From Raja brachyura (Eukaryota): a stretch of 64,000 bases of DNA. The stretch's first letter is position 1. Every line of letters begins with the position of its first letter. This document shows, piece by piece, positions 300 through 59,800 of the stretch. The translations under genes were made by a program, and so were the position numbers. The notes beneath the pieces are model-generated. The model was not told where the DNA came from, searched no databases, and worked only from the letters and a program-made list of their open reading frames with translations. Location of the stretch: NCBI GenBank assembly GCA_963514005.1, contig OY740809.1, forward strand, positions 22,692,001 to 22,756,000, read 5' to 3'.

Positions 300-544
300 G
301 CTTCATAATTCACAACTCTTCAATCCTTTTGTCTCATAACCTTTCATCTCTGACCTTCACCTAACAATTTGCTTATCAACCCCCTCCCCTCAGTTCACCT
401 ATTAACTGTCATGCTTTGTCCTGCCCCTCCTCTCTTCCAGCTCCCCCCTTCCCAACAATCAGTCTGAAGAAGGGTTCCAACCTGAAATGCCATCTATCCA
501 TGTTCTCCAGAGATGCTGCCTAACCTGCTGAGTTACTCCAGCAC

Positions 545-545
<1 letters not shown>
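300..545 (+). mobile_element. Penelope-type terminal-repeat fragment with degenerate hammerhead core
   Basis: cagtCTGAAGAagggttccaacctGAAAtgcc at 460-491, followed by the family tail tctccagagatgctgcc...gagttactccagca. Confidence 0.6.
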
Positions 546-578
<33 letters not shown>

Positions 579-597
579 TGTGCGTATATATATGTGT
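545..597. repeat. (TG)n microsatellite
   Basis: Direct observation. Confidence 0.95.
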
Positions 598-3539: not shown

Positions 3540-3980
3540 TTTGGTGTAGTTTATTGTCACATGAACTGAGGTACAGTGAAAAGCCTTTTTGTTGTGTGCT
3601 ATCCAGTCAGCAGAAAGATTATACATGGTTACAATCAAGCCGTCCACATTGTATATACAAGATAACGGAATTACATTTAGTGCAAGATAAAACCAGTAGT
3701 CCAATTAAAGATAGTCCAAGGGTCTCCAACAAGATAGATGGTAGGTCAGAAGCACTCTCCAGTTTGTGATGGAATGGTTCAGTTGCCTGATAACTGGGAA
3801 CTGCCCCTGAATCTGGAGGTATGCGTTTTCACACTTGTGTACCTCTTGCTTGATGGGAGAGGGAGTGACCGGGGTGTGGCACTCCTTGATTATGCTGGTG
3901 GCTTGCCGACGCAGCGTGAATTATAGGAGTCAATGGAAGTGAGGTTGGTTTGCATGATGGTCTGGGCTGTGTCCATAATA
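3540..3980 (-). mobile_element. Rex1/L2-like LINE 3' fragment
   Basis: tttattgtcaca...ggtacagtgaaaagc tail pattern, shared with similar copies at about 11.7 kb and 43.6 kb. Confidence 0.5.
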
Positions 3981-5009
3981 CAGCAGCAGAAATCTGTACT
4001 TTTTTTCATGTCATAAGCTGTTATATTAACAATAAAATAGCGAGAATCTAAAATACAACACATCAGCGTTCTTTAAAAAGACACAGCAAGTGGGCCTTAC
4101 CTATTAGTGATAGCGCTGTGTACACAGAGTGAGATTAACGAGTTGTTTTAATCTGCACTGATTTAATGATGTGCTCATCATTCGAAGCAGGGTTAAATTC
4201 AGTTTGAAGCATCTTTTTGCTAACAAGCAGCAGGTATAGCTGATGACATCTTTCAGCCCATTAATTGCATTAATAACCACCTTTTTACTATTTCCATTAG
4301 CGTACTTTGTCATAATTCCATCACCGTAGGAATAATAATTTTCTTCAGCCTGGTGCACAGATAAAGTAATCTGACATTTAGTTTAATGAGGAAAAATGTA
4401 ATTGATACAAATTGCTCATTTCAGTCTAATGCAATGCAGATCAAATTTTACAACGGATGTCACTTAAAATTGTTTTTGCTTGTAATGAAGCAGGAAAATG
4501 TATCTTTCACATAATCTTGCAAACTGCTCAGTAACTGTATACAAGGTTTCCCTCTAGTGTTGAAATCCACTGATGTTTACATTCCAACTTCACTTAAGGG
4601 AACACTTAACATTTTGTTTAGCCTCCTGTCATAACAACAGCTGGTATAACTAAAGTGAACAGTGGCATATGCCAACTTGCGAATGCAAGCTATTAAAATA
4701 TGTTTGGGAACAACTTTTAGCAAACATTAGTCTTCTCAAATATGCATCTTTTGGCATTGGTCATGAAGATAATAAAATCTCTTTTGCTGTAAACATTGGT
4801 CTCCTATTTATTTTTACCATGCCCACCAACAACTTACTCTGACGATGAATGCCACTGAAACGAATTAAACCAGTCCATCCAATGTCATATTTTGTTTTAA
4901 TTTAGTGCACACTTTCATTTAACACAAAAGATCTTTAGCTTGAGAGTCTAATCTTCTCATTGCTTTCCTTTCAATTATGCCAATAAAGCATTGTGATCTT
5001 TAATTTTTG

Positions 5010-5310
5010 AGTTATAGTTTTAGATGCAACGTGAAAATAGACCTTCGGTTCACCGAGGCCATGCCAACCAGCGGTCCCCGTTCATTAGCGCTATCCTAAA
5101 CACACTAGGGAGAATTTACAATTTTACCAAGCCATTTAGCTGACAAACCTGCAAGTCTTTGGATTGTGAGAGGAAACCAGAGCACCCGGGGAAAACCCAC
5201 GCAGGTCATGGGGAGAATGAACAAACTCCCTACAGACAGCACCCATAGTTAGGATTAAATCCGTCTCCCTAGCACTGTAAAGCAGTGACTCTACTGCTGC
5301 GCCACTGTGC
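5010..5310 (-). mobile_element. HE1/V-SINE-like tRNA-derived SINE
   Basis: On minus: gcacagtggcgcagcagtagag... head, V-domain-like ttctccccatgacctgcgtgggttt, CR1-like tail. Confidence 0.75.
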
Positions 5311-6949
5311 CTCCCCTTCTATTCTGTTCAAAGTAATCCGCCCCAGTTCTCAAACTGGTCCTGGGAATCAAAGATGCTCAAACATGTGATATCAGCTCCT
5401 ACTCAACATTTTAAAAATGGAGCCAACAAGTTATAATTTATTTAATATATTTAACACTAACACTATTTTTTCTTTTGTATTATTTGTCTGGGACTAGAAA
5501 AATGAAAAGATCTTCTGATAGACACAGGCTGATTTTTCCTTCCTCCACCCCATCAGATCGCAACCAGAAGTACACATATCTTAGTTCCCTGAATGATATT
5601 AAGATAATCAACAAAGAAAAAAAACATCTTACAACCCTTATGGGATCCCATTAATGGCTAGCTTCCAGAAATCATTCAATAATGTAGTTCTGGTCAGTTT
5701 TAGTAGTAAATAAATCTATCTCCCAAAAGTCACAATCATTCTTTACCTTTCCACTGTCTTAATTTGGAGCAGGTCATGGTATTTTCAGCATGATGTTATT
5801 TTAGTAGGCATTTGAACAATGTCCTCTACAAAGATCACCTAGTCCATAACAAAAACTTAACTGGAAGCAATCTATTCTATAGCATTAACGAGTAGCATAA
5901 TCAAATGTGATATATGCACAATTTCCATCCCTGCTAATGATGCAGACTTGAACACATTGGGCATCATTTCAAAGTTTGCAGATGGAAATTAATAAATAGC
6001 GAGGACCACAACAGATTCCAGATGGCCAGATTTACGTGAATGCAAGCGTGAAGTTAACACTTTAGTAGGAATAAGTAAATAACCCATGTAGAGTAGTACA
6101 CAGTCTAAGAGTGTACATATGCAAGTCTTTTAAGATGGCAGTAAAATTAGGAAGGTGTTAAAGCTCAACTTTCTAAATTTTACATTGAGGAAATAATGAA
6201 GAATTAGCATACATGTAAAATTAAAAAAAATGTTTATTTCAACTGGAGAAATGCATTCACTTTTGAATCCCATACTTTACGAAGAACGACCAAACCGTGA
6301 ATCGGGTGCAAATTAACTTTGTGCTCAACATTGTGAAGTGTTTTAATTTTTCTCTTGATCACTGGACCAAAACAAAAGACGCAACATGAGTAAACTACTG
6401 TTTTATGCAACCAGTTATGTCTGCAACACCTGAAAATATTGTGGAAGTGGACACACTTTAAAACTACATTGGATAAACACTTGAAAGGATATTAATTTAG
6501 AAAGGGAAGGATAGGATAGGAAATGATGACTAATAGAGTAACTCATTATGTTGTACTACCAAGTAATCTAAACGGTTTGCATGGACAGTCCACTCTAATA
6601 ATTCTAATTCAGTTTGGTCAGAGGAGAAACTATATGCTTCTCAGACAGCAACAAGCTAAATGTATAGGGTAGCATATCTGGGAACATTGGTAAAGCATTT
6701 ACAGAGTGTGTTAATGAGCAGTGGCATACACTCCTATAAATTCATATAGATCCTTGATTAGCCCACACTTGTGAGGATTGAACACAGGCAGTCTATACAC
6801 CACTACAAATATCAAAGTGTTGGGAGTATGAAGATATACAAGATTTCAAAAATTAGGCAAATGTTAAGAGTGCGGATGTCTGTTCTCTGGAAGAGATGAG
6901 ATTTGGCAAAGGTTTATGAATTAACTCAGTTTGTTTCTCAAATTGCCAC

Positions 6950-7745
6950 CATACTGAGGGTTCTGAGTCTCTGCTCATCCCTGTACAACTGGATGTCCAA
7001 CATGCTCATTGACAGACCACAACCAGCACAAATTGGCAGTACAAATCTCCTCGATAACCATCAGCTCAGCACAGCACCTCAGGGCTGTGTGCTTAGTCCC
7101 CTGATCTGCTCTCTCTACACCCATCACTGTCACTGGATGCCATCTTTAAATTCACCGACAACACCACAGTTGCTGCACCGCCGTGGATGAATAATGGGTA
7201 ATAATGTCGGAGTACAGGAGGGAGATCTGAAATCTGATTGAATGGTGCCAGGGCAACAACCTTGTTGGTCTGAAGAAGGGTTTAGCCCGAAACGTTGCCC
7301 ATTTTCTTCGCTCCATAGATGCTGCTGCACCCGCTGAGTTTCTTCAGCATTTTTGTGAACTTTGCTCTCAATGTCATCAAGACCAAGGAGCTGATTTTTG
7401 ACTTTAGAAAGGGAAGGCTGACGATTACAAACCTGTCGTCATCAATTGGTTGGAGGTGGAGTGTCAATAACTATATAGTTCCTGGGTGCGCATATCACTG
7501 AAGATCTGTCCTGGACCAAGTATACCAATGCTTCTATTTCCTTAGAAGATTGTGGAGATTCGGTATGTCGATGAATTCACTCATAATTGTGTACAGATGT
7601 ACTGAAGCGAGCATATTGACCTTTTGCCTCGTGGGCTTGTTTAGCAACTCGAACCCCCAGAAAGAAAGAAAGTTACAAAAGTAGTGGACACTGCCCGGTC
7701 CTTCATGGTCACTGACCTCCTTACCAAAGAAGGAATCCATAGGAA
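6950..7745 (+). mobile_element. Rex1/Babar-like LINE RT fragment, interrupted by a Penelope repeat
   Basis: CSSLYNW...DRPQ, STAPQGCVLSPLICSLYTH, LNVIKTKELIFDFRK; frameshifted. Confidence 0.75.
7267..7299 (+). ncRNA. Minimal type I hammerhead ribozyme motif, best-preserved copy
   Basis: GGU-CUGAAGA-A-GGGU(UUA)GCCC-GAAAC-GUU^GCC. Sits in a 93-bp insert (7265-7357) flanked by aaccttg/aactttg. Confidence 0.6.
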
Positions 7746-7903
7746 TATTAAAAAATGATTTTAAAGTTTATATGATGCACGCACACAATACATTGTGGTA
7801 TGTGTAGGGACTTTGGGAAATAATAACGAATTATTTTTATATTGAATGCATCAAATGTGCAACTCAGTGAATAGGAAATTGCCACAGATTTATAAAAAAG
7901 GTA

Positions 7904-14100: not shown

Positions 14101-17100
14101 ATTATAACTTTATGTTATTGCACTCGTTGGTAAGCTTCTGCCAGTTCAGCCTGTTGAAGCTTAATAGGGATCGCAAAGACTACATTTACATGGTTAGGGT
14201 TCATAGGATCACAGAAACAGCCCTTTCAGCTCAACACAAAGCTGATCTTTTTGACCATCGACACTAATCCCATTTGCCCATCTCAGATCCGTATCCTTCT
14301 ATACCATACCTATTTAAGTGTTTGTCTGAATGATTCATTAACATAGTGATTGTATCTGACTTCTCTACCTCCTTTGGCAGGGAATTCCAGATATCAACCA
14401 GTGTAAAAACACTTTCCTCTCCAATCCCCTTCAAAATTTCTTCCTCTCACTTTAAGCCTAGTGATAAAGATTTTGACTACCTACACTTTCTTGTCTCATA
14501 AATTGATATGCTTCTATCATGTTATCCCTCAGTTTCCTATATCCCAGGGAAAACAAACCCAGTTTATTTAATTTGTCCCCAGATGCAAGTCCTCCAATTC
14601 AGGCAATATCCTGGTGAGTCTCGTCTGGGCTCTGTCTCATTTTGCTGTATTCGTTCTCACCTAGCAAACAGCTAACAATGGCGTGTTTCCTTTATCATCG
14701 TTACTTTTTTGCATATCTTTCATTCATCTGTTTCATATCTTTCTACATCACCGTCTATATCTCTCAGTTGCTTTTCCCCCGACTCAGTCTGAAGAAGGAT
14801 CTCGACCCGAAATGTCACCTATTCCTTTCCTCCAGAGATGCTGTCTGACCAGCTGAGTTACTCCAGGTTTTTGTGTCTTTCCTCACCCTCCTATAATGTG
14901 GAAATCAGAACTGTGCATGATACTCCAAATTTGGTTGAACTAGTGTTCGTAAAGGTGTAACGCAACGTCTCTAGAATGGAGCGGCTAGGCTTGTATACTC
15001 TGGAGTTTAGAAGGATGAGAGGGAATCTGATTGAAACCTAAGATTATTAAGGGCTTGGAAACGCTAGAGGCAGGAAACATGTTCCTGATGTTGGGGTAGT
15101 CCAGAACCAGGGGCCATAGTTTAAGAATAAGGGGTCAGCCATTTAGAACGGAGACGAGGAAAAACTTTTTCACACAGAGAGTTGTGAGTCTGTGAAATTC
15201 TCTGCCTCAGAGTGGAGTGGGGGCTGGTTCTCTAGATGCTTGCAAGAGAGAGCTAGACAGAGCTCTTAAAGATAGCAGAGTCAAGGGATCTGGGAAGAAG
15301 GCAGGAACGGGCTGATTATGGATGATCATCCATGATTACATTGAATGGCGGTGTTGGCTCGAAGGGCCAACTCCTGCATCTATTGTCCACTTTAGTATTT
15401 TAAGCCCTAATCTAAGAAGGTAAGCATGCCATATGCCCTCTGATCATCTTCTAGCTGCTGCAGATATTTGTGTGCATTAAGAGAGTACCGATAGTCATTT
15501 AACAGCAACACAACGCAATATACTTCCACTCAGCAGCTAATATTTTCATTTAATTGTTCATATCTTTCTACATCACTGTCTATATCTCACATTTGCATCC
15601 GCCCCCCCCCCCCCCCGACTCAGTTGGCTTGACATTAATCAATGATAACTGACATTTAAATTCTTGGATTAAGCAAGCAGATGTTACTCTCCCAGAAGTT
15701 GTCTTTTTTGTTGTTGAAAATTTGATTAAAAATAACTTTTCATCCAATTAAAATGTAGTGCCCAAGTAATATTAGATAAGAAGGCGCCAGGATTTTAAAA
15801 TGGGATTGAGTGAACCATTTTCATTATTTCAACCAAATCCTTTTAGATGAAATAAATAATTTTACTTGTTCAGCAAAAACTCACATGTGAATTTTGTTCA
15901 CTTGTTCCTGTAGTTCCTCATCCGAGGGCAGATCTTCATCAATTTCATCTTCTTCGTACTCGTCAGATTCTGCATCGTATTCCTCATCGCTTGCCCCGTC
16001 GTCGCCAGAGAGTTCAGCCTCTTCTTCTACAAAGTCTCCAAGTTTCCTGTCAAATAATTTCAGTATTAGTGTAGTAGCTAATAATCTACTGCAGATTGCT
16101 ATACGACCACCAGGTAACATAAACAAACAACATTCCACCTTTATCAGAAATAATAAAATAATGCGAGTAGATGGAACGATTAGGAAGAATGCAGAGGACC
16201 ACGGTTGACAGCCACCCCCCCAAACGTTTAATCAAATAGTATATTTTAGAAATGCACAGAGAAGGTGTATAGAAAAGGTATGGTTATGATTTTGAGGGAA
16301 GGAGTAAAAAGAACCACGGCTGTACTAACAATTTATTTTTCCTTTGAATTTTCTGAGCCAACTGCTCCTCTTCGTCTTCCTCACTATCTTTATTTTCTTC
16401 ACCACCTTCATCTTCCTCACTATCTTTATCTTCTTCACCACTTTCGTCTTCTTCACCACCTTCGTCTTCACTTTTATCATCCTAAGTAGAGAAATTTGCC
16501 ATAAATAATAACTCAACAATATCAGTCCTTTGCTACATGGCACACATGACATCTCTCTAAATTATCAAACTTTTGATAAGTAGAACTTATCATATTAAAT
16601 ATTTACACACAGAATCATTGCTTCAAATTTCATACAATCTCTCACCTCACTCTCAAAAACTTCATCATCTGTTTGCAACTGAAACTGGTCGTCTTCGTTT
16701 TCATCATTCTCCCTGGATGGAGGATAGATGGTTTACGTTTATTATGTAAAGTAATGAAGACAATTAAAAACTTTTCACTCTAGAAACATATGTGACACTG
16801 AAGTGCAAATTATAAAATGCTCCTCATCCAGACAACATTAAGCTCCAAATAACACCATTTTGCAGATTTGAAACATTACCTGTTTGTGGGAAAAGACCCT
16901 AAGGAAAGTGCAAGCACCTCAGTCGTAGGATCATCCGATACTGAGTTTGTTGCTTTTTGTTCCTTTGCAGCTGAAGTGATGGAAGACATTGAATCTACTG
17001 CAAAGAGAAAAAAAGTTACAAATAAATTCTAGTGATAGTTACAAATTTCTGCTGTAAAGCCATTGACTCTCTGCGATATTCATCTTCAATTTCTGAATCT

Positions 17101-20100
17101 AATTTTACAAATAACCTGCCACTCGCCATGCATAGGAATCCACATAAAAATGTGTATTATGTACTTAATCAACCTAGCTGTTGAGGTTTACGAAGCTCCA
17201 CTTAACAAATTATTTTCCCAAGAGCAGTAAATTGAGTCAAAGTACCATAGCACGCAAACAGGCACATCATCCCACTGTGTCCGTGCCAACCATCAAGTGC
17301 CTATTTATACTAACCCCATTTTCCAGCAATTCCCCGTGACCTTATCTGCTGCAACACTTCAATTGATTGTTATAGTTCTGACGCCGTCCCCACCAGGTCC
17401 CCTGGCAGAGCAGTCCCAGATGACAACCATTCGTTAAACGAAAATATTCTTCCTTACATCCCCTAAATCTTCCACCCCGAGAAAATGACTGTTCTATGTG
17501 TTTTTAATTAACAAATTAAACACCTATCCAATTATTATAGACACAAAATGCTGGAGGAACTCAGCGGGACAGGAAGCATCTCGGGAGAGAAGAAATGGGT
17601 GGCGTTTTGGGTCGAGTCCCTTCTTTAGCCCAAATCTTCACCCATTCCTTCTCTGCAGAGATGCTGCCTGTCCATCTGAGTTCCTCCAGCATTTTGTGTC
17701 TATCTTGGGTTTAAGGCAGCATCTGCACACCTATTCAATTATATTTTGCAATAATCAGCACAGGCCAATCTATAGTATGTACACATTACTTGTATATGCA
17801 TATGGAATTTAGAATGCAAGTTAAAACTGCAAGAGCATACCTGGAGAAATAAATTTCCCAGAGCAAAGTCCAAGCAGCTCATCAATGTTTTCTTTTTCTT
17901 TGTTATCCTTTAATGTATCAAGGTTTTGAGGTTTGAACTCTCCTGAACAAAGACCCAACAACTCGCCCATATTTGCATCCATTGCATTTTCATCCATACT
18001 ATCCAAGATCAGTTGCCGCTTTAAGGGCTGCCACTTGTTGCTGCGATGACCCACATTCAGGAACCTAGTTCAAAAAATAAATCTCAAATTGTTTGCAATG
18101 TCTTAATAACTACCAGGAAGGTTTAAAACCCAATCTTTCATACAATCAGTCTTAGAATAAAGGGGAGGCCATTTAAAACTGAGGTGAGAAAAAACCTTTT
18201 CACCCAGAGTTGTGAATTTGTGGAATTCCCTGCCACAGAGGGCAATAGAGGCCAAATCACTGGATGGATTTAAGAGAGGGTTAGATAGAGCTCTAGGGGC
18301 TAGTGGAATCAAGGGATATGGGGAGAAGGAAGGCACGGGTTATTGATTGGCCTCCTCCTGCACGGTAAAATAAGAAAACATATTCATGGCTGTTTACTAC
18401 AGCAATCTTCAACTTGAAATGGTATAAAATGATCAAATTCTCAAGAACTTAAACCATTGTTGTTTCCGTAGCTTTTATCTACAACTCCACATCTTGATAG
18501 TTTCAAAGTACAGTCGTATGCAAAATTCTAGGCTCTAAGCAAAAATAGAGTTATTAATAACAAAAACGTATTTTCCTGGCTCTGATCCTTTTAATGAATA
18601 TAGCAACTTACCCATCTGCATCAAGTAGCTGACTTTGTGTTTCATCTTCGAGGGAGAACCTGAATTGAGATTCACCGGTTGAGTTTTTGGGTTCTGGAGA
18701 TGCATTGTACAAGTCTTGCGAATCTTCTACTGGCATAGAAGGCTCAGATAGCTTCCCAGAACTCTGATGGCATTAAAATGCATTGTCATATATTTTGTTG
18801 TTGGTTACACAGTATTTTCACTCTTCCAGGCGTATTCCTTTTACCCCACCCAAAAGGTCACAGCTTTGGAGTCATATAGTGTGGAAACAGGCGTTTTGGC
18901 CCAACAATGTCCCAGCTACATTAGTCCCACTTGCCTGCGCTTGGTCCATATCCCTCTAAACCCGTCCTATCCATGTACCTGTCTGTTTCTTAAACGATGG
19001 GATAGTCCCAATCTCAACTACCTCCACTAGCAGCTTGTTCCATACACCCACCACCCTTTGTGTGAAAAAGTTACCCCTCGGATTCCTATTAAATCTTTTC
19101 CCCTTCACCTTGAACCTGTGTCCTCTGGTCCTCGATTCCCCTGCTCTGGGCAAGATACTCTGTGCATCTACCTGATCTATCCCTCTCATGATTTTGTACA
19201 CCTCTATAAGATCCCCCCCTCATCCTCCTGCACTCCATGGAATAGAAACCCAGCCTACTCAACCTCTCCCTATAGCTCACACCCTCAAGTCCTGGCAACA
19301 TCCTCATAAATCTTTTCTGAACCCTTTCAAGCTTGACAATATTATTCCTATAACATGGTGCCCAGAACTGAACTCAATATTCTAAATGCAGTCTCACCAA
19401 CGTCTTATACAACTGCAACTTGACCTCCCAACTTCTAGACTCAACACTCTGACTGATGAAGGCCAAAGTGCTAAAAGCCTTTTAGACCACTTTATCTACC
19501 TGCGACTCAACCTTCAAGGAACCATGCACCTGTACTCCTAGATCTCTCTCCTCTACAACACTACACAGAGGCCTACCATTTACTGTGTAGGCCCTGCCCT
19601 TGTTCGACGTCCCAGAATGCAACACCTCACACTTCTCTGTATTAAAATCCATCAACCATTCCTCTGCCCACCTGACCAATCGATCCAGATCCAGCTGCAA
19701 TCTTTCACAACCATCTTCACTCCCTGCAAAGCTGCTCACTTTTGTATCATCTGCAAACTTGCTAATCTTGGCATGTATGTTCTCATCCAAATCATTGAAG
19801 CAGATGACAAACAGTAACGGGCCCAACACCGAACCCTGAGGCACACCACGAGTCACAGGCCTCCAGTCGGAGAACCAACCTTCCACCAACACCCTCTGCT
19901 TCCTTTCTTTTTACTCAATTAAGACTTTTCAATTTTCCGTGCCCTGTTCATTAAGGTTAATCTTGATATACTGCCAGACATACAGAATCATTGTTAAATA
20001 TTTGTAAAAAGCACAACTTTCAGTGGCAACTTTTTATTTAGTGTTTCCAAACAGAAAAAAACTGTTTTGCCTCAGGGCATTGAGACCAAATGTTTTGTGA

Positions 20101-38100: not shown

Positions 38101-41100
38101 ATTGGGACTGAAATATATTATTTTGTGTGTTGATTTAATAAGCACTTTGATGTACAACCAATTGATAATTTGATAGAGAAAAAGATTTGCTGTATTGAAA
38201 CTGTATATACATTTGAAGTGTCAGAAGCAAGTGTTTTGGTTTTCTTAGTAGTTCACCATCAGCAAGTTTTACTCATTTGTAGTAGCCAGCTGCACTCAGA
38301 GTGATCATTCTGTTCATCCACTGAGGCAATATGTCATCATCATCATAAAACATCAACGGGCATGGTGCCTTATAGTGCGACAGTGATTGCAATTTCTACT
38401 GAAGAGTGGATGGCCATTAGCTCGCTAGCAGCTCATCCGCCCTTTGACAGGTCTTGTTTTTGGTCCTGCTGGGGGTCCACAGCCCCCTCTTCACCTGCCA
38501 AACCAGGTGGGAGAGACGGTTTAGTCGCCGACTATCCGACCATGGAGCTGGTAGCACATGATATCATGGTGTCCGTGGCGGGGGGCTCTCCCCGACCTGA
38601 CAATATGGAATAAGCTCAAAAATAAGAAAGATGCGATCACTCTAATGGGATTGTGCTTTTAGCCTCCCAATACCCAGCAGGGTAGCAGAACTTTGTATTG
38701 GAAAGCTCATTGTTTCACGGAATGACTGTCAGGTGGTTAGAGCGAATCAATATGACAAGGGTTATCTGTAATGTGTGCTGTTTCAGTTGCCGAATTACAG
38801 GAAGGATGAAGAGGCTTTTGAGAGGATGCAAAAGAGGTTTATCAGAATGCTGCCTGGATTGGGACGTGCCGTGGTAGTCTGGCGCGCTGACCTCCACCGG
38901 GCTGAGGCCAGGCGACAAATCTCAGGCACCTCCTCCTACTTATCCTTGGACCATGATCCCACAGATGAGCACTCGACCTTAATCTCAAACACCATTATTG
39001 ATTTAATCACTTCTGGCTATCTTCCTTCCACAGCCTCCAACCATATCGTTTCCCAGCCCCGCACAGCCCGTTTTTCCCTTCTCCCCAAACACAACTTCCC
39101 TGGCAGACCCATCATTTCTGTCTGCTCCTGTCCCACGGAAATGATTTCCATGTACTTCGACTCCATCCTATCCCCCCCCTCAACTCCATCCTGTCCAATC
39201 TCTCTAGACCCATGTCCAAGATGTCTCACATGCCTTTCATCTCTTTAATGACTTCCGCTTTCCGAGCCCCCACTCCCTCATCTTTACTATGGACATACAC
39301 CTCCATCCTCCACCAGGAAGGCCTTAATGCCCTCCATTTCTTCTCTGACTGCAGAACCACCCAATGTCCCTCTATTAACACTACTTTGCCTAGCAGAGCT
39401 AGCCCTCACCCTCAGCAGCTTCTCCTTTGACTCCTCCAACTTCCTCCAAGTCTAAGGCTATGGGTAGCTATGGGCACCGCATGGCCCCAGTTATGTCTGT
39501 CTCTTTCTAGGGTACGTTGAACAATCGCTGTTCCAGGTGTACACTGGCCCTATCCCCAAACTCTATCTCTGTTACATTGATGGCTGCATCGGTGCTACCT
39601 CCTGCACCCTTGCACAACTCATGGACTTAACCATTAATTTTCATCCTGCACTCAAATTTACTTGGACCATCAACAACTCCCTCCCCTTTCTTGATCTCAG
39701 TCTCCATCACAGGAAATAGACTATTGACTGACGTCTACCACAAACCCACCGACTCCCACAACTATCTTGACACTTCTTCCCACCTTGCTTCCTCCAAAGA
39801 CTCTATCCCTAACTCCCAATTCCTTCGTCTACGCCGCATCTGCGCCCAAGATGAGGCGTTCCATACTAGAACATTCGAGATGTCCTCATTCTTTAGGGAA
39901 CACGCGCAGGTGCCGGCTGAAAAATGTGAGCAGCTGCCAGCGACCGTCAATAAACTGTTCGAGGACTCCCCCCCGCCCCCCCCCCAAACGACGAAGTCAG
40001 AAGCATCGACAGTGAGGGCGGTTGGGGCAGCAGAGCGCAGGTGTACGAGCATGGTGATGTTAATGAGAGCTTTCATGGCCCCGTCAAAAGCGGCCGTGGT
40101 CCCTGCGTCCCACACCAGGTCCCGCTGCTTGCCTGCCGTTGACGGTGGCCAGGGTGAGGTAAGATGCTGAGCTCGGCCCCGGTGTCCATTAGGAATCTGA
40201 TCCCGGAATAGCGGTCCCAGACATTGAGGCGATGTTTTTGGCCGACCGTGACAGCCTCTACTGGCGATCGGCCGAGGCATTTCCCGGATGCGAGCAGGGA
40301 GCATGGCATTGGCGGGTCTCCGCACCCAAGCGTTGGTGGTAGTAGCACTACTGGCGCTTACTGAGATCCGCAGCAGTCGTTTGCGGCGCAGCAGTCGGCC
40401 GATGGTGGAATGGACCATCGAGGCCATTGCGGAGCTGTGGACACCCGGCTGATGGAAGCCTGGTGGTCGGTGAAGTCGCACCCAGCGAGGAGCAGGAGGA
40501 TGTCGTCGGGCATCTGCTCCAGGAAAGCCTGCTCGAAAATGAGACAAGGTCGGTGACCGTCCATCAGAGACAGCATCTCGCTCATCAGCACCGACGGCTT
40601 GTGGTCACCGAGGCCGTACATGTGCAGGAGCCTGACCGTGCAATCGCGGCGGCTCAGCCCGAAGGTACGCAGTAGCAGCGCCTTGAGGCCCTCGAATTTG
40701 TTGTTGCCATGCAGACTTTGGAGGTAAGGGAGCAATCAGGTGGCAGTTTCCTGATTGAACGTGCCGACCACGTAGAAGTATCTGGTGGAATCCGCAACAA
40801 TTTGCTGGATGTGGAACTGGTCCTCGATGAGATGGAACCACACAAGAGGTTGGACTGCCCAGAGAACGGGAAGTTTAAACAAAACCGCATTCTGTTGGGC
40901 GGGGTTGGGGTCAAGGTTTTCGGCAGCGTCTCCAATCATTTACCACACTTTTCTGGATTAAGTTCTAGTTTTCAATGTTCTGCCCAACTGTACAGATCAT
41001 CTGCACCTTCAGTCTAAAGCCTTCATCCACTAATAATTTCTGTAACGTCCACAAATTCCTCATAATTCCATCTTAAACGCAAGTCTTAGTCATTTATATA

Positions 41101-46737: not shown

Positions 46738-48165
46738 CATCAGTCAGAGTAATGAGCATAGAAGTTGGGAGGTCATGTTGCATTTGTATAAGACGTTGGT
46801 GAGACCGCATTTAGAGTATTGTGTTCAGTTCTGGGCACCATGTTATAGGGGGTGTGCACGTAAGGTCACTGGGTCATAGGGCTTGACGCACGGAGCAGCT
46901 CAATCCATCTGGAGAACATCCGTAACTTCCGGTATATGTTATTAATGCAAGAAACGCGAACTTTCCTACCTGTTAAAAACCACCAAAATGTTGAATTTTT
47001 GTGCTGTAAAACATTGGAAGTTGGGGAGAGACGTACCCAACTAAGCGTGAGAAACGTACCCAACTTCAGAATTCCAAAAGTGAAGCGAAAGGAAGTTAAA
47101 GAGTGCTTGGCGAACATTGGCCGTGCAGATATTGGAATTGAAAATATTGGGAATTATCGCATTTCCTCACTGCATTTCATCAACAGTAAGGCATTATTTG
47201 TGGTTTTTATTGATTCCTTTGGTATCTAAAAAGTCTCAGAAGTGATAAATCTGGCTGTAAAGTTTGCTTCAGAGACATTTTCTTTTTGTATGTAAAAACC
47301 CACTTGAGAACCATGGGCGATTTTAAAATTTTACACCCAGATTTATCACTTCTGAAACTTTTTAGATGCCAAAGGAATCAAGAAAAAACACAATTAATGC
47401 CTTAGTTGATGAAATGCAGTGAGCAAACGGCCAATGTTCGCCAAGCACTCTGGCTGTTGTTGTCCCTTCAGCTCTCGCTTCTATCTACCGTCATTTCTCC
47501 TCACTTTTGGAATTCTGAGGTAGGCTAAATGTCTCACGCTTATCCCGATTTCCAAAATTATTTACAGCGCAATAATTGACAATTTTGGCGGGTTTTAACG
47601 GGCCCGCTACGCTGGAAACAATGGTAAGTGCTTACCTGCAGTTCATCGCGTGTACTCCACTTGGCATGGCGTAGCAACAGTACGGGTCATGGGCCATGAC
47701 CCAACTCGCGTGAAACCTCCCTATAGGAGAGATGTTAAGCTGGAAAGGGTACAGAGAAGCTTTACGAGGATGTTTTCAGGACTAGATAGTCTAACCTTTA
47801 GGGAGAGGTTGAGTCGGATGGGACTCTATTTCTTGGAGCACAGGAGGTGGAGGTGATTTTATAGAGGTGTAAAAAATGAGAGGAATCGACCGGGTAGATG
47901 CATAGAGTCTGTTGCCCCGAGTAGGTGAATCGAGGACCAGAGGACATAGATTTAAGGAGAAGGGGAAAATATTTAATCGGAATTTGAGGGGTAATATTTT
48001 CACACAAAGGGTGGTGGGTGTATGGAACAAGCTGCCAGAGGAGGTAGTTGAGACAGGGACTATCCCAACATTTGGAAATTATAGGCAAGTACATGCATAG
48101 GACAGGTTGGGAGGAATGTGGGCCAAATACAGGTAAGTGGGACCAGTGTAGCTGGGACAACTAGC
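46738..48165 (+). mobile_element. CR1 3' fragment split by a foldback DNA element
   Basis: [16 protein letters not shown] stops at 46847 and resumes YRRDVKLERVQRSFTRM at 47722. Confidence 0.85.
46848..47721. mobile_element. 874-bp foldback/MITE-type DNA transposon
   Basis: GGG...CCC termini flanked by TATA (46844-46847, 47722-47725); long internal inverted arms around about 47300. Confidence 0.8.
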
Positions 48166-50414: not shown

Positions 50415-50851
50415 TTAATTTTTGCAGAGAACATCTTTCAAAATAGACATTCCATACAGGTTTGCTCTCTCTGCACCATTCTTGAGTAACATAAAGTCCT
50501 TGCATGATTTATTGTTCTTTGCTAGCTCAGCTAACACACATTGAAAGGCAGCAACAAGGTCAAGCTCAACAGACGTGGGGGAAGCTCGAGTTAGCAAATC
50601 AAAAATATTATTCATCCACTTCGATTCAATTACATTTTGTGCTAGCCATGGCAATAAAGGTATGCAACTACTAAAAGCTTGCATTCCTAGAAACCAAAGC
50701 TCAGAGATTTGATCCCAAATTTCCTGGTATCGCTCAGTCAGGACAATAAGTGTTCTTTGATCTGCCTCTTCCTTTTCAGCTGCATGTGCTTTTGAAAGAA
50801 ATTGAATTGCTTCTCGGAAAAATCCCTGGGGCACTGAGGTTTCCTGAAGCA
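50415..50851 (-). CDS. NCDN: NCDN terminal coding exon (VLQETSVPQGFF...LKDVLCKN*)
   Basis: ttccag acceptor; ORF 50415..50900 ends in TAA. Confidence 0.93.
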
Positions 50852-53800
50852 CTGGAAAAAAAAGATTGCTTTTCAAAATACAAACGACACGACAACCCAA
50901 TGACCAGACTTTTATTTAATATCAAGTACAAGGTCAACCACCTCTGCTTGAAAGTAAAATAATGATTTTGGCTGTCTCACTTCTCTTCCAACAATCTGTA
51001 ATTTTTCTAAAGTCTTTCAGTCTTTAAGTATTTCAGCTCAGACCAGAAGATACCACACAGGTCTGTTCCCAAATCCCATATCTTCATTTGATCTTTACAC
51101 TCTCAGATCCACTATCTTCAAAGTTTACCATTAAGAAGCATATTTTTCTTCACTATTCTACCATTATCTTTGACTTCGGCAATGCATTTATTAAAGTTCT
51201 GCATGGTAGGCTGGTCTGGAAGGTTACATCCCATGGGATCCAGGGAGAGATAGAGACTAAATTTCGTGGAAGAAAGCAGCGAGTATTGGCAGAAGATTGT
51301 TTTTTTGGGCTGGAGGCCTTTGACTGGAAGTGTTCCTCAGGGATTGGTACTGGGCCCATTGATGCTTCAAAGATTTCAAAGGTCTTTTATTGTCATGTGT
51401 ACCAATTAAGGTACAGTGATATGCGAATTACCATACAGCCACACTAAAAATAAAATAAAAAAACACACAACTACATAAAAGTTAAAACAATTTGGTTGAG
51501 AATGTAGAAGGTATCATTTTGCAAGGTGAGAGGGGAGAGGGGAAAGATTTAATAGGAACCTGAGGGGCAACTTTTTCTTCACAGAGAGTGGTGCGTGCAT
51601 GGAACGAGCTGCCGGAGGAGGCAGTTGAGGCAGGTACTATCAGAAGCATTTAATAGACATTTGGACAGGTACGTGGATAGGAAAGGTTTAGAGTGATATG
51701 GGCAAAATGTAGGCAGGTGGGACTAAAGGGCATCTTGGCCGGCATGTGCAAATTGGGCCGAAGGCCCTGTTTCTGTGCTGCTTGACTATTTGTCCCAGCT
51801 TTACTGTTGGAAAGGCTATTCCTACTATCCTTGCACAATGACGTCCACCTTCTTATTAAGCTGCATCCTTTGCTGCCTCATTCATTATACATAAACGTAG
51901 CTTTTTGATAATGATATGAACAAACAATGAACTAAATTCCATCTCATTGACACGCTTAAAATCATTAAAAAAACGCACCTCGTGATTCAGCTTAAACTTT
52001 CTCCAAATGAATAACTTAACATATCTTTCACCAGCACCCAGGAAACCAGTTCATGATTTTAATCTCTCTTCTGATTAGTCACTGGGGTTACACCCAAAGG
52101 TAGGCTAACCATTTTGTCCAAGCTATACTTCACACAGTTACTTTCCACCTTGTAACTTCATTTCTACCTCACATTCATAAAGTCATCTCCACAATTATCA
52201 CTATTGACCAACATTTTCTGGATTATCTTTCCAACCCTCAACTATTCATAAGATTTCTATCCAAATCAGATCAGACTCACCTAAAACTTGTCTTCACTAA
52301 CCATTAATGACCTATCCACAACCTTTCACTCTTATCAACACATTAAAAAAAAAATTGAATTATGGCTCCATTGCAAATTTCACCAAGGCACATATATACA
52401 GGAAATTTCTTCCACTAAAGTCACAAGTCAGATTATCTAATCTTCAAACACCAGCTACTTGCTATTAGTTTGTCACTAAACTCGACCTTGGTGATAGAAT
52501 CTTTACCAATTTTGCCTGCACTTGCAGTTTTCTTGGCAACATTTTTCTTTCCCCACCCCCCCCCCCCACCCACCTCCCATTACATTCAAAGGCACCCTCA
52601 AAACTGACTTCCATAGCCTTAGCTTTGCTAATTTTTCTGAACACTTATTCAGCGTTTACTATGTAAAATGATTTTAAATTATTTGCATTAGCATTGCTCT
52701 AGTGCAGGTGGACATTACTGTAAAATATTGTACAATCTCCATTTTCTAAAGTACAGATATATTTAATTACTTTTACATTAGATACAATAGATAACAATTT
52801 AGCTTTTTTATTTTGTACCTGGAGTGCCAGCCAATATGCGGCTCATCATTAATCCCAAAGTGGTAAAATTAGCAGCAAGAATCAGGTAACTTTGGTTGCA
52901 GAGCAGTGAAGGCAAGGATTTCATTAACAAATTAAGTAAAGTTAAGAAGCACTCTTCCTGTCTGCAACAATAAATTAAAAGAAAACAAGGGTAAGCAATG
53001 TTTAATAAAGATGAATTAAAAACAGAAAATGTTGATATTAATTTTATGAATTGAAGACTTATGATATTGGCAATATTTTACCCGTGCAAATTTGGTAAAT
53101 CCACATATGCTCCTTAATCAGGGTCAGAACAAAATGTTGTGGAACCAGTTAGTAATATCATTCTTAGTAATGTAATTGAATGAGAAGCCAATTAACTATA
53201 ATCAATCATAATCACCGATCCACTTGTAATAATGCATACCCACATTATATTACTTGAATATTTAGTGTTATTGTTATGTTAACCTGTGCATCATCAAGAA
53301 TCCCGCAGTGCCTCCTTATGGTAACACAGTCAGACAAAACTGTGTGGGGATCTTGGAGGAACGTTGGCCCCCAGAAATTTCACCTGTGGAAGCTGCGGGA
53401 GGGTATGCCTGTCAAAGATAGGCCTAGCCAGCCACCGCAGGGAATGCAACCATAGGTGAAACATTTCCCTCTCCAGGAAATCAAAGCATCATCCTATCAG
53501 ATGGACGGATGTTAACTATTTAATGTGAAAACAATAGGTCAATAGTGGCCTTCGAAACCATCGAAAACTCCACAGATTAACGTAATTAGCAACAAAATTA
53601 TAGAGATTAGGAAGGAGGCAGGATTAATCCATGCTCTGTTTAGACATTACACCTGGATGCAATGGCAGAATTTTGGTTTGGGGAAAAAAAAGATTTATCC
53701 AACAATTACAATGTTGGACATATATACAAGAATGTGGGGACAAGTTAGAACTGCAAAGGTAGCTGTTGGCAAGGATCTATCAGTTTTACCTAGGCTGACT

Positions 53801-56800
53801 CACAACTCACCCGAACATTGAAAGTGGCGAAACTGAATATGCAAGTTAGGAACAGGAGTAGGCCACTTGCCCCTCATACCTACCTACTGCAGACTCTACC
53901 CACAGAAATCTTTCAACTTCTTGCTTGTCAAGAATCAAATGTGACACAGTGGTACTGCCCCATAGCTTCAAGGTCCAGGGCTCAGTTTTGACCTTTGGTG
54001 GTGTTAATGTGGAGTTTACATTTTTTTCCATGCGTCTCGGTGGGGTTCCTTCAATTGCTCTGGTTTCCTCGCTTATCCCAAACATCTGCCGGTCGTTAGG
54101 CTATTTGGCTGCTATAAATGAACACTCAAATAATGGCTAGTGAGAGAATTGGGTGAGGGACAGCGTGAATAGGCATGAGAGAATAGATAACGGGGAATAA
54201 GATTGACATAATCGATTTGTGAACTAGCACAAACTCAATGGGCCAAATGGTACGTCTTAAGAAAATATGGATAATCTCTGGCTCACACATATTCAAAGAC
54301 TATTTCCACAGCCCTTAGACAAAGAGAATTCCAAAATACAATACCTAAGGAGCAAAAAAAATCCATCACATATTGGCCATAAATTAGTGATTATATAAAG
54401 GCTCTATATAGATTCTCCCCCAAGAGGCAACATCCCCTCCACATTCATCCTGTCCACACCCTTCTCTCTTCTGGGTACAAGCATAGTCTGTTCAATCTTT
54501 CCTGATGGGAGCCGGGTGAAATAATGATGGGGCTGAGACTAGACTTCCTTTATGTTGGCTGCTTTTCTGAGGCAGCATAGATGGAGTCAATGGTGTGGAA
54601 TCTGGTCTGCATGATGTTCTGGGCTACATCCACAACTCTCTGCAATTTTGTGCAGTTTTGGGCTGAGCAGTTCCCAAACCAAGCTGTGATGCAACCCAGC
54701 TGTATGCTTTCTATGGTGCATCTGTAGAAGTCTGAAAGTAATTGAAGACATGCCAACTGTTCTCAGTCTCCAGAGCAATTAGAGGCATTGGTGTGCCTTC
54801 TTGGCTGTTTCTTCAATGTGCTTGGTCCATGACCGATCATTGGTAATTATACTTAGGAAAGGGTGACAACCATATCCAGAAAAAGTTAATTCATTATAAA
54901 TAGTGGTCACAATTACAATTCTGTCTTGGGACCAAACAGGAGCAGGTATGCAACGTAAACTATGGTTATCTTGCAGAATTATCATTGCTGGAACCTGGCC
55001 AAGATGCTTGACATTTAACAGAAAAAATAGCAACAAACTTAAACCGTAACCCATGGATTAGGTTTTCTTGCAGCTGATTATGATCAGCAAGCAACATTTA
55101 AGCACCTGTGCTCAAGCTGTAAACTGAAACCCAACCAATGTTTTGTTTATTGTACCCAAGTCTAGTTCTTGTGTAATGAATTTTCCAATTTCTCTTTGTT
55201 CCCTCCACTGATGTATTACTTAAATATTAGAGATGTAATTATAAAGAGGTTAATTTTGGTACTCTTGTGGATTCTTTTCACTATCTTAATATACATTTCT
55301 TTTTCAATATATATAACTAACTTTCATCAAATTACAGAGTAATTCTTCAGCTGAGTTGGAAATACCTTATCAGTGCAGGGTCAGTTACTACAAGATTCAG
55401 GAAAATTCCACAGGCCGTTCGGAGATTCATCTCCGTTTTATCTGGTGAAAGCGGTGCATTGTGGCATGTATTGAAAACTTCCCACTGTTGTGTAAAATAG
55501 CGGAGGAGCAAAACATGAAACCCATGTGAAATTAAGATTCTCCGAGGAGCATCCTCAACTGAAAGGTGACAAAATCCAGGTAGCAAGAACCTGTAAGTAG
55601 AGACATATAATCAGCACTATATTTTAAGTATACCAAAGTATTAAGAAACAGGTTCTACCAGTAATCCTCATCTTTTCAAATAACTCTTGCCGTGCCCCTA
55701 TGAAATGGAAGGACAACACAAACCTGATTAAGTTAATGATAAATCACAAGATACATATTTTATTTTGTATGCATGAAAAATATTCAAAGAATTGATTGAC
55801 CCTATTCTGCTATTCAACATGTGATCTACAGCTGTGTACCCACATTTTCCTGTATTTTATACATTTATCTGCATTGCTCGAAATGTAAACTATCTGTATC
55901 AATATCTAATTTGAATACATGGCTTTTCACAGTCTGAAGAAGGGTCTCAACCCGAAGTGTCACTCATTCCTTCTCTCCAGAGATGCTGCCTGTCCCGCTG
56001 AGTTACTCCAGCATTTTGTCTACCTTAGAGATAAAATGTAGTCGGAGACAGTAAAACTGGTCGGAGAACTGGGAAGGGGGAGGGATGGAGAGAGAGAGGG
56101 AAAGCAAGGGCTACTTGAAGTTAGAGAAGTCAATATTCATAATGCTGAGGTGTAAGCTGCCCAAGCGAAATATGAGGTGCTGTTCCTTCAATTTGCACTG
56201 GGCCTCACTCTGACAATGGAGGAGACCCAGGACAGAAAGGTCAGTGTGGGAATGGGAGTTAAAGTGTTGAGCAACTGGGAGATCTGGTTAATCTGCTTCA
56301 TCTACCATGTTGCCCTTGGCATGTAATAGCCCTATGGTGAATACAATAATTTCAGATTACCAGTCTTATGTCAGAATTGTCTAGTTCTGATGCAAGATCA
56401 TCCACTGGTAAAATTAGCTCTTTTTCTTTTAACCTGAATGCAAATAGATACGACGGATATTTCAAGCATTTTCTTTTGTGTTAAATTTCCTGTATCTGCT
56501 ATATTCTAGATTTCACTGTGCCAGTATGTTATTTTGAGGGGGTTTTTTTGACACCATGCAACTGCCTGCATTCTTCAATGAAATAGATGTAATCCAAAAG
56601 CATCTAACACCTGAACAACTTTGTTCTTTACCCTTTCTCAGATTTTGTTTTACTCTTTCCATAAACCTCTACCCCACCCCTCCCAATCTCACTCCACTCT
56701 CGCAGTTTAAAATCCAGTTCTAATGCAGGGTTACCTACCTCTGCTGCAGATACTGCCGGACCTGCTGTGAACATAGAACTTTCCACTGTTATATTTCATA

Positions 56801-59800
56801 CATCTGGAGCTCTTTTCTTAAATCAATCTAGACGTTTTGGGGGAACTCTAGCAAGTAGGAAGCAATGTTTAAGAAGGAACTGCAGATGCTGGAAAACGAA
56901 GGTAGACAAAAATGCTGGAGAAACTCCGTGGGTGAGCCAGCATCTATGGAGCAAAGGAAATAGGCGTTTCGGGCTGAAACCCTTCTTCAGACTGAACTCA
57001 ATGTTGCTTTTCTGCTCACCACGACTGACTGCTTTCTTAAAATCGAATTCTAGATAGGCTGCAATGTCTTCCAATGAAGCACAGCAAAATACAAACTATG
57101 GTCTTTAATCCCCGTCCTCAAATGCTGTTAAGCAGCAAACAACCCAATTATTTTCTGAGGTTAAAAAATCTGACATGGTCCCAGTCTATAGTCTTGTTGT
57201 CATATTTAACCCCAAGAGAAACTCCCAAACACATAACCCACATCAACGCTTAGGCTGCCTATTGCTATTTGCCCATCCCCATCCAAGCTCAGAGCATCTG
57301 CTGCTAACCTGTGTCTTTGTCGCGAGGGTCTTAGGCAGAAAACGCTAGTGGGAGCTGTGTACAGGCCACCTAACAGTAGTATTGGAGTTGGGGATGGCAT
57401 CAAACAGGAAATTAGAAATGCGTGCAACAAGGGTAACACGGTTATAATGGGTGACTTCAATCTGCATGTAGATTGGGTGAATCAAATTGGCAGGGGTGCT
57501 GAGGAAGAGGATTTCCTGGAATGTATGCGGGATAGTTTTCTCAACCAACATGTGGAGGAACCAACGAGAGAGCAGGCTATTCTAGACTGGGTATTGAGTA
57601 ATGAGGAAGGGTTAGTTAGCAGTCTTGTTGTGCGTGGCCCCTTGGGCAAGAGTGACCATAATATGGTTGAGTTCTTCATTAGGATGGAGAGTGACAAAAT
57701 TAAGTCAGAAACAAGGGTTCTGAACTTGAACAAAGGTAACTTTGAAGGTATGAGATGTGAATTGGCCAAGATAGACTGGCAGGTGATTCTTAACGGGTTG
57801 ACAGTGGATGTGCAATGGAAGGTATTTAAAGCCTGCATGGATGAAGTACAAAAGTTGTTCATACCAGTTTGGCAAAAGAATAAATCGGGGAAGGTGGTGC
57901 ATCCATGGATAACAAGGGAAATCAGGGATAGTATAAAAACAAAAGATGAGGCATACAAATTTGCCAGAAAAAGCAGCCTACCGGAGGACTGGGAGAAATT
58001 CAGAATCCAGCAGAGGAGGACAAAGGGCTTAATTAGGAAAGGGAAAATAGATTATGAAAGGAAACTGGCAGGGAACATAAAAACTGACTGCAAAAGTTTT
58101 TATAGATATGTGAAGAGAAAGAGACTAGTTAAAACAAATGTTGGTCCCTTGCAGTCAGAAACAGGTGAATTGATCATGGGGAACAAGGACATGGCAGACC
58201 AATTGAATAACTACTTTGGTTCTGTCTTCACTAAGGAAGACATAAATAATCTGCCGGAAATAGCAGTGGAACGGGGGTCAAATAAGATGGAGGAACTGAG
58301 TGAAATCCAGGTTAGCCGGGAGGTGGTGTTGGGTAAATTGAACGGATTGAAGGCCGATAAATCCCCAGGGCCAGATAGTCTGCATCCCAGAGTACTCAAG
58401 GAGGTAGCCACAGAAATAGTGGATGCATTAGTGATAATTTTTCAGAATTCCTTAGATTCTGGAGTAGTTCCTGAGGATTGGAGGGTAGCTAATGTAACCC
58501 CACTTTTTAAAAAAGGAGGGAGAGAGAAAGCGGGGAATTACAGACAATTTAGTCTAACATCGGTAGTGGGGAAACTGCTAGAGTCAGTTATTAAAGATGG
58601 GATAGCAGCACATTTGGAAAGTGGTGAAATCATTGGACAAAGTCAGCATGGATTTACGAAAGGTAAATCATGTCTGACAAATCTGATAGAATTTTTTGAG
58701 GATGTAACTAGTAGAGTGGATAAGGGAGAACCAGTGGATGTGTTATATCTAGACTTTCAGAAGGCTTTCGACAAGGTCCCGCATAAGAGATTAGCATACA
58801 AACTTAAAGCACACGGTATTGGGGGTTCAGTATTGATGTGGATAGAGAACTGGCTAGCAGACAGGAGGCAAAGGGTAGGAGTAAACGGGTCCTTTTCAGA
58901 ATGGCAGGCAGTGACTAGTGGGGTGCCACAAGGCTCAGTGCTGGGACCCCAGCTATTTACAATATATATTAATGATTTGGACGAGGGAATTCAATGCAAC
59001 ATCTCCAAATTTGCAGATGATACCAAGCTGGGGGGTATAGTTAGGTGTGAGGAGGATGCTTGGAGGCTGCAGGGTGATTTGGATAGGCTGAGTGAATGGG
59101 CAGATGCATGGCAGATGCAGTATAATGTGGATAAATGTGAGGTTATCCACTTTGGTGGCAAAAACATGAGGGTAGACTATTATCTGAATGGTGGCAGATT
59201 AGGAAAGGGAGAGATGCAACGAGACCTGGGTGTCATGGTACACCAGTCATTGAAAGTAGGCATGCAGGTGCAGCAGGCAGTGAAGAAAGCAAATGGTATG
59301 TTAGCATTCATAGCGAAAGGATTTGAGTATAGGAGCAGGGAGGTTCTACTGCAGTTGTACAGGGTTTTGGTGAGGCCACACCTGGAGTATTGCGTACAGT
59401 TTTGGTCTCCAAATCTGAGGAAAGACATCCTTGCCATAGAGGGGGTACAGAGAAGATTCACCAGACTGATTCCTGGGATGTCAGGACTTTCATATGAGGA
59501 AAGATTGGATAGACTCGGCTTGTACTCACTGGAATTTAGAAGATTGAGGGGGGATCTTATAGAAACGTACAAAATTCTTAAGGGGTTGGACAAGCTAGAT
59601 GCTGGAAGATTGTTCCCGATGTTGGGGGAGTCCAGAACAAGGGGTCACAGTCTAAGGATAAGGGGGAATTCCTTTAGGACCGAAATGAGGAAAACATTCT
59701 TTACACAGAGAGTGGTGAGTCTCTGGAATTCTCTGCCACAGAAGGTAGTTGAGGCAAGTTTATTGGCTATATTTAAGAGGGCGTTAGATGTGGCACTTGT

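Follow-up and report, generated by a model that had tools for sequence, protein, structure and literature searches.

Dispersed minimal hammerhead motifs in a batoid genome are very probably decaying terminal repeats of a Penelope-like element

Results

A hammerhead-bearing repeat around CLSPN

The 64-kb stretch of contig OY740809.1 from position 22,692,001 to 22,756,000 (hereafter the window) contains the host gene CLSPN (claspin) and a dispersed repeat carrying a minimal type I hammerhead ribozyme motif. We assign this repeat, with high confidence, to the pseudo-long terminal repeat (pLTR) of a Penelope-like element (PLE). The closest protein matches point to a cartilaginous fish as host, likely a skate or ray. 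The coding exons of CLSPN, considered here as context only, extend over 42387-8027 on the minus strand and have Pristis claspin as their best named match (75%); an endonuclease fragment at 56.1 kb is closest to proteins of Leucoraja, Rhinoraja and Hypanus.

A preliminary description of the window had listed eight copies of the motif and two partial ones, belonging to an abundant chondrichthyan family. Host and abundance agree with our results. The motif is found at all eight places, and the partial sites at about 29895 and 60450 are matched as well, but the former (29895-29910, plus strand, 5' half of the motif) extends over only 16 nt, too short for certainty. The family comprises 14 arms with a 3' end, amounting to ~2080 bp or 3.3% of the window, with bounds set by eye. 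Our genome-wide statements refer to contigs of four runs aligned to one 251-nt copy; 82,268 contigs of one run align to it, which is not a copy number.

Link to a Penelope-like element

A 5'-truncated PLE at 20124-20533 (minus strand) joins the repeat to coding sequence. It lies in a CLSPN intron, in sense orientation, and runs unbroken from a GIY-YIG endonuclease C-terminus (20529-20401) and its stop codon through 185 nt of pLTR to the motif (20212-20185) and a 3' end with no tail, all within a 12-bp target duplication (20112 and 20534). The distance from the stop codon to the motif is exactly 185 nt, in agreement with the ~185 nt proposed before. In tblastn, this endonuclease end matches the batoid proteins P0011 and P0027 (E 6e-10 and 4e-11). 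A second endonuclease end, at 56281-56114, is likewise followed by a stop codon and the start of a pLTR (56030-56287, minus strand). The ends at 20.4 and 56.1 kb have 123 nt in common, and the copies at 14.7 and 20.2 kb have 229 nt in common.

The PLE reverse transcriptase (RT) reported earlier is also present, as a frameshifted RT and thumb fragment at 38823-39921 (plus strand) that matches P0001, a protein with both RT and GIY-YIG domains, at E 1.6e-36. Pfam recognises no family in the window's PLE RT fragments, which tblastn did match. RT and GIY-YIG sequences are separate fragments in the window, and both match the same proteins. In the batoid relatives P0029 and P0056, a CxxxxCxxC linker precedes the GIY-YIG motif, in a region that lies outside the window's sequence; such a cysteine linker is a mark of the Neptune and Nematis clades (PMC8557442). 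As no full-length element of the batoid family is available, we infer its clade and the structure of its source elements.

Motif scans gave at least 117 loci in metagenomes, and 0 and 1 loci in viral contigs. The metagenome loci have no DNA similarity to the window and so serve as a distant comparison only; the conservation of their core is not evidence, because they were selected by motif. Of the 124 matches listed from 118 unrelated loci, 67 had at least 400 nt of upstream sequence; in 20 of the 124, the same strand carries a PLE endonuclease end 65-164 nt upstream, and in none is there one downstream.

Four predicted batoid gene models (P0027, P0030, P0056 and P0089) end in PLE endonuclease sequence. 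The fused models include a neuromedin-U receptor and an ATP synthase subunit C-like protein, and are either cases of exon capture or annotation artefacts.

Anatomy of the insertions

Three insertions are head-to-head foldbacks, each with a target duplication of 14-16 bp and with exactly one tailed arm. The foldback at 17536-17726 (16-bp duplication at 17520 and 17727) pairs a tailless minus arm with a broken core (17628-17536) and a tailed plus arm (17629-17726) that holds the 3' half of the motif. A second, at 31786-31906 (16 bp, 31770 and 31907), is without hammerhead core and has a tail on its minus arm only. In the third, at 60395-60566 (14 bp, 60381 and 60567), the tailed plus arm begins within stem II and the minus arm is tailless.

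Single arms are spread over both strands. An arm of a third subfamily at 449-551 (plus), with its motif at 464-491, has no tail and runs into a (TG)n tract. The untailed subfamily B arm at 7268-7357 (plus; motif 7270-7296) has its 5' end at -2 from C3. It is antisense to CLSPN, ~730 nt past the last coding exon, and lies within a reading frame resembling a long interspersed nuclear element (LINE); we take its flank at 7.2 kb to be LINE-like. The subfamily A arm at 14651-14878 (plus), antisense in a CLSPN intron and also untailed, has C3 at 14789, G12 at 14809 and the scissile bond at 14816/14817, and 138 nt of its upstream pLTR are common with the 20.2 kb copy. At 37857-37976 (plus), a tailed arm antisense to CLSPN combines an intact core with a 1-bp helix I and starts at -1. 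A subfamily A arm at 55930-56026 (plus) starts at -4 and is untailed; a subfamily B arm at 56870-56995 (minus) starts at -5, is tailed, and has a possible but weak 7-bp target duplication. Two further fragments are a pLTR middle piece at 15540-15624 (plus), which stops one base short of C3, and a short 3' piece at 34632-34686 (minus) with neither motif nor tail.

Target duplications of 12-16 bp were found at 4 of the 14 intervals tested; only 1 of 999 random pairs scores as high. No clear duplication is seen at 460, 14786, 34682, 29895 or the 56 kb composite, and the candidates at 7267, 37858 and 56961 are within the range of chance (score of at least 7 in 174 of 999 random pairs).

The 3' ends fall into two classes: 9 of the 14 arms stop ~60 nt past the scissile bond, and the other 5 carry a further tail of ~25-40 nt. 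The 5' ends vary from +70 to -350. Inverted pLTRs, a one-ended tail and target duplications are described hallmarks of PLEs (PMC8557442, PMC3846280), and two internal RT start sites with extension of two strands have been described for the anole element (PMC11167929). Together with the GIY-YIG link, these hallmarks bear out the proposed origin in the pLTR of a PLE.

We propose that the RT-endonuclease of the element would cut both target strands, as in published PLE work. Reverse transcription would start at one of two internal RNA sites, ~60 nt and ~85-100 nt past the scissile bond, would often proceed from both sides of the cut and would stop early, leaving single arms or head-to-head pairs. 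Since the copies span the scissile bond, the template was presumably uncleaved RNA. If cleavage occurs at all, only intact source elements would be expected to undergo it, and they would likely depend on a tandem partner or an element protein. Read in this way, the insertions are clean evidence from a genome for what was seen in vitro with the anole element, namely internal priming at two sites and two-ended insertion.

A different joint is found at 55930-56287, where the plus hammerhead arm meets, tail to tail, the minus endonuclease end with the first ~85 nt of its pLTR; it is unlike the three head-to-head foldbacks, and no target duplication was found around it. Among the metagenome loci, L006:1061-3608 is an almost complete PLE, with hammerhead motifs at both ends and, upstream, a pLTR in inverted orientation; L040, L041, L047 and L115 hold four symmetric head-to-head pLTR pairs. 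These families have two 3' end classes too.

State of the hammerhead motif

Positions are given in the hammerhead numbering, in which 11 core positions are invariant. The majority of the family has the core CUGANGA ... GAAA NN U H, with an extra A after A9 and G10.1 in all seven aligned copies, and C11.1 in six of the seven. By the extra base that follows A9 and the palindromic pair 15.2/16.2, the motif is confirmed as the published minimal type I hammerhead. Its presence is real and far above chance: with no helix I required, the published descriptor has 4 matches in the window, 3 of them in the PLE family, where 200 dinucleotide shuffles give 0.115 on average; with a helix I of at least 3 bp it has 1, where such shuffles give 0.005. 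However, all 11 invariant bases and H17 are kept in only four of the eight copies (7267, 14786, 20182 and 37858), and a single copy (7267) passes the descriptor. In the others, U16.1 has become C (copy 460), A15.1 has become G (copy 55931), G5A, G12A and U16.1C occur together (copy 17598), or three bases are deleted at the cleavage site (copy 56961). An Rfam scan of the whole window (E up to 5) returned 12 matches, all below the gathering score and none of them a hammerhead; those models do not catch the minimal form.

Helix I of the family is 2 bp long, formed by a 5' arm CAGU before the core and a 3' arm ACC after the scissile bond (GCC in subfamily B); the same 3' arm appears in the loose-end consensus lines of all four runs. 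The 3-bp arms GGU/GCC and AGU/ACU of the preliminary description turn out to be private to single copies and are not features of the family. The third G of copy 7267 lies in the junction with the flank, where the family has A, and AGU/ACU depends on a private C-to-T change in copy 55931, whose core is broken. A helix I of at least 3 bp is present in one of the eight copies, by virtue of the junction base. Among the 124 listed non-shark matches it is present in 86, with covarying arms (ACA/UGU 33, CCA/UGG 20, GCA/UGC 7, CUA/UAG 6).

The palindrome AC-GU stands as the family form of helix III, with C at 15.2 in 49-66% of contig depth, but it is intact in only one of the eight copies (7267), and its CpG has decayed in most of the others. 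Stem II of the family has 4 bp; its loop does vary, as had been noted, but largely through subfamily difference plus CpG decay.

Decay and the prospect of cleavage

Among the 10 subfamily A arms found by BLAST, differences from the majority affect 6 of 54 core and 47 of 620 other positions (Fisher p=0.42). Core bases that mutate as freely as their flanks in young copies had been named beforehand as evidence against the ribozyme proposal; we find such mutation in the window copies, which are not young. G12, the general base (PMC6155905), sits in a CpG. In depth-weighted, reference-biased figures from 40 of 115 rows, it reads A in 12, 19, 13 and 17% of depth in the four runs, and the neighbouring non-core G16.2 does so in 7.5-11%, below G12.

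In the four intact copies, the hammerhead fold is predicted to lie 9.0-12.7 kcal/mol above the minimum-energy fold, and a competing helix is predicted between the purine-rich core and the pyrimidine-rich stretch that follows the scissile bond. The energy gap has a median of 6.4 in 121 listed non-shark matches and reaches at least 9 in 24% of them; as that share is equally unfavourable, the gap is weak evidence.

We regard it as very unlikely that the dispersed copies have ribozyme activity, conditional or otherwise, with which they cleave CLSPN or other host pre-mRNAs, whether singly or as dimers. The four intact cores, the descriptor match of copy 7267 and the occurrence of the repeat in contigs of runs guessed to be RNA would fit such activity. 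However, copy 7267, the only one to pass the descriptor, is antisense to CLSPN, and in the sense copies either helix I is down to 1 bp or the core is broken. The intact cores have no same-strand tandem partner nearer than 7.5 kb, and their hammerhead fold is disfavoured by the predicted energies given above. Published monomers showed no cleavage and dimers showed little (PMC4209133), 8 of 9 Xenopus dimers were uncleaved (bioRxiv 10.64898/2026.07.22.740005), and the ribozyme of the anole PLE cleaved only with protein, uncleaved RNA being the insertion substrate (PMC11167929). The 20.2 kb copy is indeed sense to the CLSPN pre-mRNA, in the intron 20648-18766, as first described, but its 1-bp helix I and broken helix III pair make an effect on this pre-mRNA unlikely. 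With four intact cores in eight copies, one descriptor match and an unprotected core, the implied view of the copies as working ribozymes is not upheld. To judge from their sequences, they are probably not ribozymes, and such motif hits should not count as working ribozymes.

A cluster of 5' ends at the hammerhead edge

Six arms (7267, 17598, 29895, 37858, 55931 and 56961) start at -5 to 0 from C3, an interval picked after seeing the data. They represent 6 of the 9 arms holding C3, against 3 of 78 listed non-shark copies (Fisher p=1e-5; 5 of 8 and p=8e-5 when the 16-nt match at 29895 is left out), and 6 of about 17 arms in all. No arm in the window starts at the scissile bond, and that position is absent among the listed loose-end piles. 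In X14, 765 contigs break off just before 14786, where the average is ~40 per place by our own arithmetic; these loose ends are long and dissimilar (median 255, agreement 0.31). The interval 14783-14787 is among the six loose-end places listed for each of the four runs, and foldback joints often fall at 14784-14785.

The base at 14786 corresponds to the A in an exact match to the Drosophila-type Initiator (TCAKTY). This candidate hexamer (14784-14789, plus) overlaps the 5' arm of helix I. At +29 to +32 (14814-14817, plus) lies GWYV, a candidate resembling the downstream promoter element (DPE) at 4 of 5 positions. The same spacing occurs by chance in 6 of the other 224 TCAKTY hexamers in the window, and 0 of 124 listed non-shark matches have the hexamer at the motif. 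Both consensus sequences were taken from PMC1538597 and PMC1475891.

One possible, if doubtful, explanation is that the short copies are run-off cDNAs to the 5' end of an RNA that starts at the Initiator on the helix I arm. It would add to the PLE origin; priming may occur 90-130 nt downstream, and the DPE-like motif may lie over the cleavage site. The excess of C3-edge starts over the listed non-shark copies fits this explanation, as do the loose-end pile, the foldback joints at 14784-14785 and the exact Initiator with its DPE-like spacing, a hexamer not seen at the listed non-shark motifs. There is a precedent in Penelope of D. virilis, which has an internal Inr/DPE-type promoter within its pLTR (PMC2377424), but its start precedes the hammerhead by ~120 nt and is followed by an intron. 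Moreover, the loose ends come from contigs, which cannot reveal RNA starts; they cover 24 of ~1005 rows, and the pile at 14783-14784 is partly due to a further subfamily whose upstream sequence differs. The 15540 fragment, which approaches the site from the opposite side and stops there, points to a break point at the DNA level. An interrupted palindrome next to a pyrimidine tract is found at this site as well, and the DPE matches at only 4 of 5 positions.

Alternatively, and with a probability that approaches an even chance, the cluster marks a hot spot of breakage or joining, which may arise because RT stalls at the pyrimidine tract, because ends join by microhomology at the palindrome 14784-14792 or because the endonuclease cuts there. 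The shared end of the 15540 fragment favours it. So do palindromes known at inverted PLE junctions (PMC3846280), the anole PLE protein that cuts within its own pLTR (PMC11167929), and copy 37858, in which target and element start share 6 bases. Against it, no such cluster is seen in the listed non-shark families, and the Initiator with DPE-like spacing is left unexplained, although this may be chance (~1.5% per pLTR length, own arithmetic).

A spliced form giving a better helix I was considered in view of the AG acceptor-like site at 14786-14787 and the end of the D. virilis intron there. It was dropped, because the short copies share no upstream exon-like sequence.

It is conceivable, though we would not expect it, that in this batoid PLE lineage the RNA polymerase II core promoter of the element is formed by the hammerhead itself or has been written over it, with the Initiator on the 5' arm of helix I and the DPE-like motif on the cleavage site; the abundant copies of 90-130 bp would be strong-stop-like run-off cDNAs that reach from internal priming sites to the cap. 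In that case, a transcript start at the first bases of the ribozyme would limit helix I, and the genome would be a fossil map of the transcription start and of both RT start sites. The genome would also hold very many small promoter cassettes, many of them in back-to-back pairs. A cluster that marks the transcription start would further explain how solo hammerhead-bearing pLTRs grow so numerous, and would make the role of PLE hammerheads testable from genome statistics alone.

Other features of the window

The antisense arm at 37857-37976 lies ~25 nt upstream of a CLSPN splice acceptor, near the expected branch point. Three tandem 73-bp units, 70-76% alike, occupy 30002-30220 in a CLSPN intron, and the last coding exon of neurochondrin is found at 50418-50915 (minus; Pfam PF05536, E 3e-5).

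A young LINE at 57237-59849 (plus) has an unbroken frame of 870 codons with Pfam matches to Exo_endo_phos_2 (E 4e-10) and RVT_1 (E 4e-31); many older 3' fragments of the same LINE are found across the window. A weak RT_RNaseH_2 match (E 0.003) at 39765-40735 (minus), which abuts the PLE RT fragment at ~39925, probably belongs to a fragment of a long terminal repeat retrotransposon. At 47167-47424, a long imperfect inverted repeat with 79-nt arms, 91% complementary, resembles a miniature inverted-repeat transposable element. Another dispersed family of ~300 bp (5008-5308, 23629-23907, 29323-29623 and 31668-31757) has a box-B-like segment, recognised by eye, and is likely a tRNA-derived short interspersed nuclear element (SINE).

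Discussion

The repeat is very probably a set of 5'-truncated, decaying pLTR copies of a PLE, likely of the Neptune/Nematis type; the minimal hammerhead in them is the published one, and RNA cleavage by these copies is unlikely. Several points weigh against this conclusion. Between the RT fragment at 38.8 kb and a pLTR there is no physical junction, and the two are linked through shared homologues. The decay test is small, and neutral decay of the copies says nothing on their source elements. The two subfamily B copies share 11 differences, all of them outside the core, and intramotif changes keep pairing; this untouched core hints at selection in source elements, not significantly (about 0.19 by our own arithmetic). 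PLE hammerheads with a 2-bp helix I have been published for Culex, Drosophila and Oikopleura (PMC4209133), so that two base pairs do not exclude activity. Plain random truncation leaves the 5'-end cluster unexplained. A naive count over seven motif-selected copies would also speak for a protected core (2 of 76 against 91 of 507, p=0.0002). This count was set aside, because the copies were chosen by motif and subfamily differences inflate the second figure.

The preliminary description had also called the family retrozyme-like. A non-LTR retrozyme, or a SINE-like non-autonomous element with a circular-RNA cycle, seems a most improbable identity. The repeat is short and abundant and has a preferred 5' end, a few "goes back" joints occur among the aligned contigs, and retrozymes derive from pLTRs and are reported in one chondrichthyan genome. 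However, no tandem arrays of the hammerhead unit occur in the 64-kb window, so the definition of a retrozyme does not apply there. The copies reach into GIY-YIG coding sequence, their 5' ends are spread over the range given above, and their tails, foldbacks and target duplications are those of truncated, autonomous-type PLE insertions. Non-LTR retrozymes (Cervera and de la Pena 2020, PMC7229834; Li et al. 2026 preprint) are similarly related to pLTRs and carry a type I hammerhead, but they form tandem arrays with a ribozyme in each unit, and the copies described here are dispersed or inverted.

In the literature covered, mostly non-subscription papers, we found no minimal hammerhead family described for skates or rays and no 5'-end cluster at the hammerhead edge; as to the former, the supplements of bioRxiv 10.64898/2026.07.22.740005 may list the family for the one chondrichthyan of that study.

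The EN+ PLEs of the Neptune and Nematis clades (Craig et al. 2021, PMC8557442; Arkhipova et al. 2013, PMC3846280) resemble the batoid family in their C-terminal GIY-YIG domain, 5' truncation, head-to-head inverted copies, one-ended tail and target duplications. They also have the cysteine linker, found here in batoid relatives only. Partial tandems, inverted pLTRs and an optional tail are described for them. In contrast, the 5'-end cluster at the hammerhead edge does not feature in the parts of these accounts that we draw on, and the element of the window is known from its ends and one RT fragment. Poseidon PAc of Anolis (Frangieh et al. 2024, PMC11167929) offers an explanation of the tail through two internal RT start sites. 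Both strands are cut and extended in that system, and the template is uncleaved RNA, as we infer here. PAc belongs to a different clade, however, and its open reading frame starts inside stem II.

The closest relatives are the minimal hammerheads of PLEs (Cervera and de la Pena 2014, PMC4209133). They share the core CUGANGA, the extra base between positions 9 and 10.1, the G10.1-C11.1 pair, the palindromic 15.2/16.2 pair and the absence of loop 3. Their repeat follows a GIY-YIG open reading frame, and their motifs are mostly single and dispersed, in thousands of copies. The 56 motifs in Fig. S3 of that study include none from a cartilaginous fish. Its descriptor has a helix I of at least 3 bp and its 2-bp cases are G-C only, whereas the 2-bp helix of the batoid family includes an A-U or G-U pair; stem II has 3-7 bp there and 4 bp here. 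The batoid family is an atypical member of this group, like the published 2-bp exceptions, and it extends the known association of PLE pLTRs with minimal hammerheads to an abundant family of batoids.

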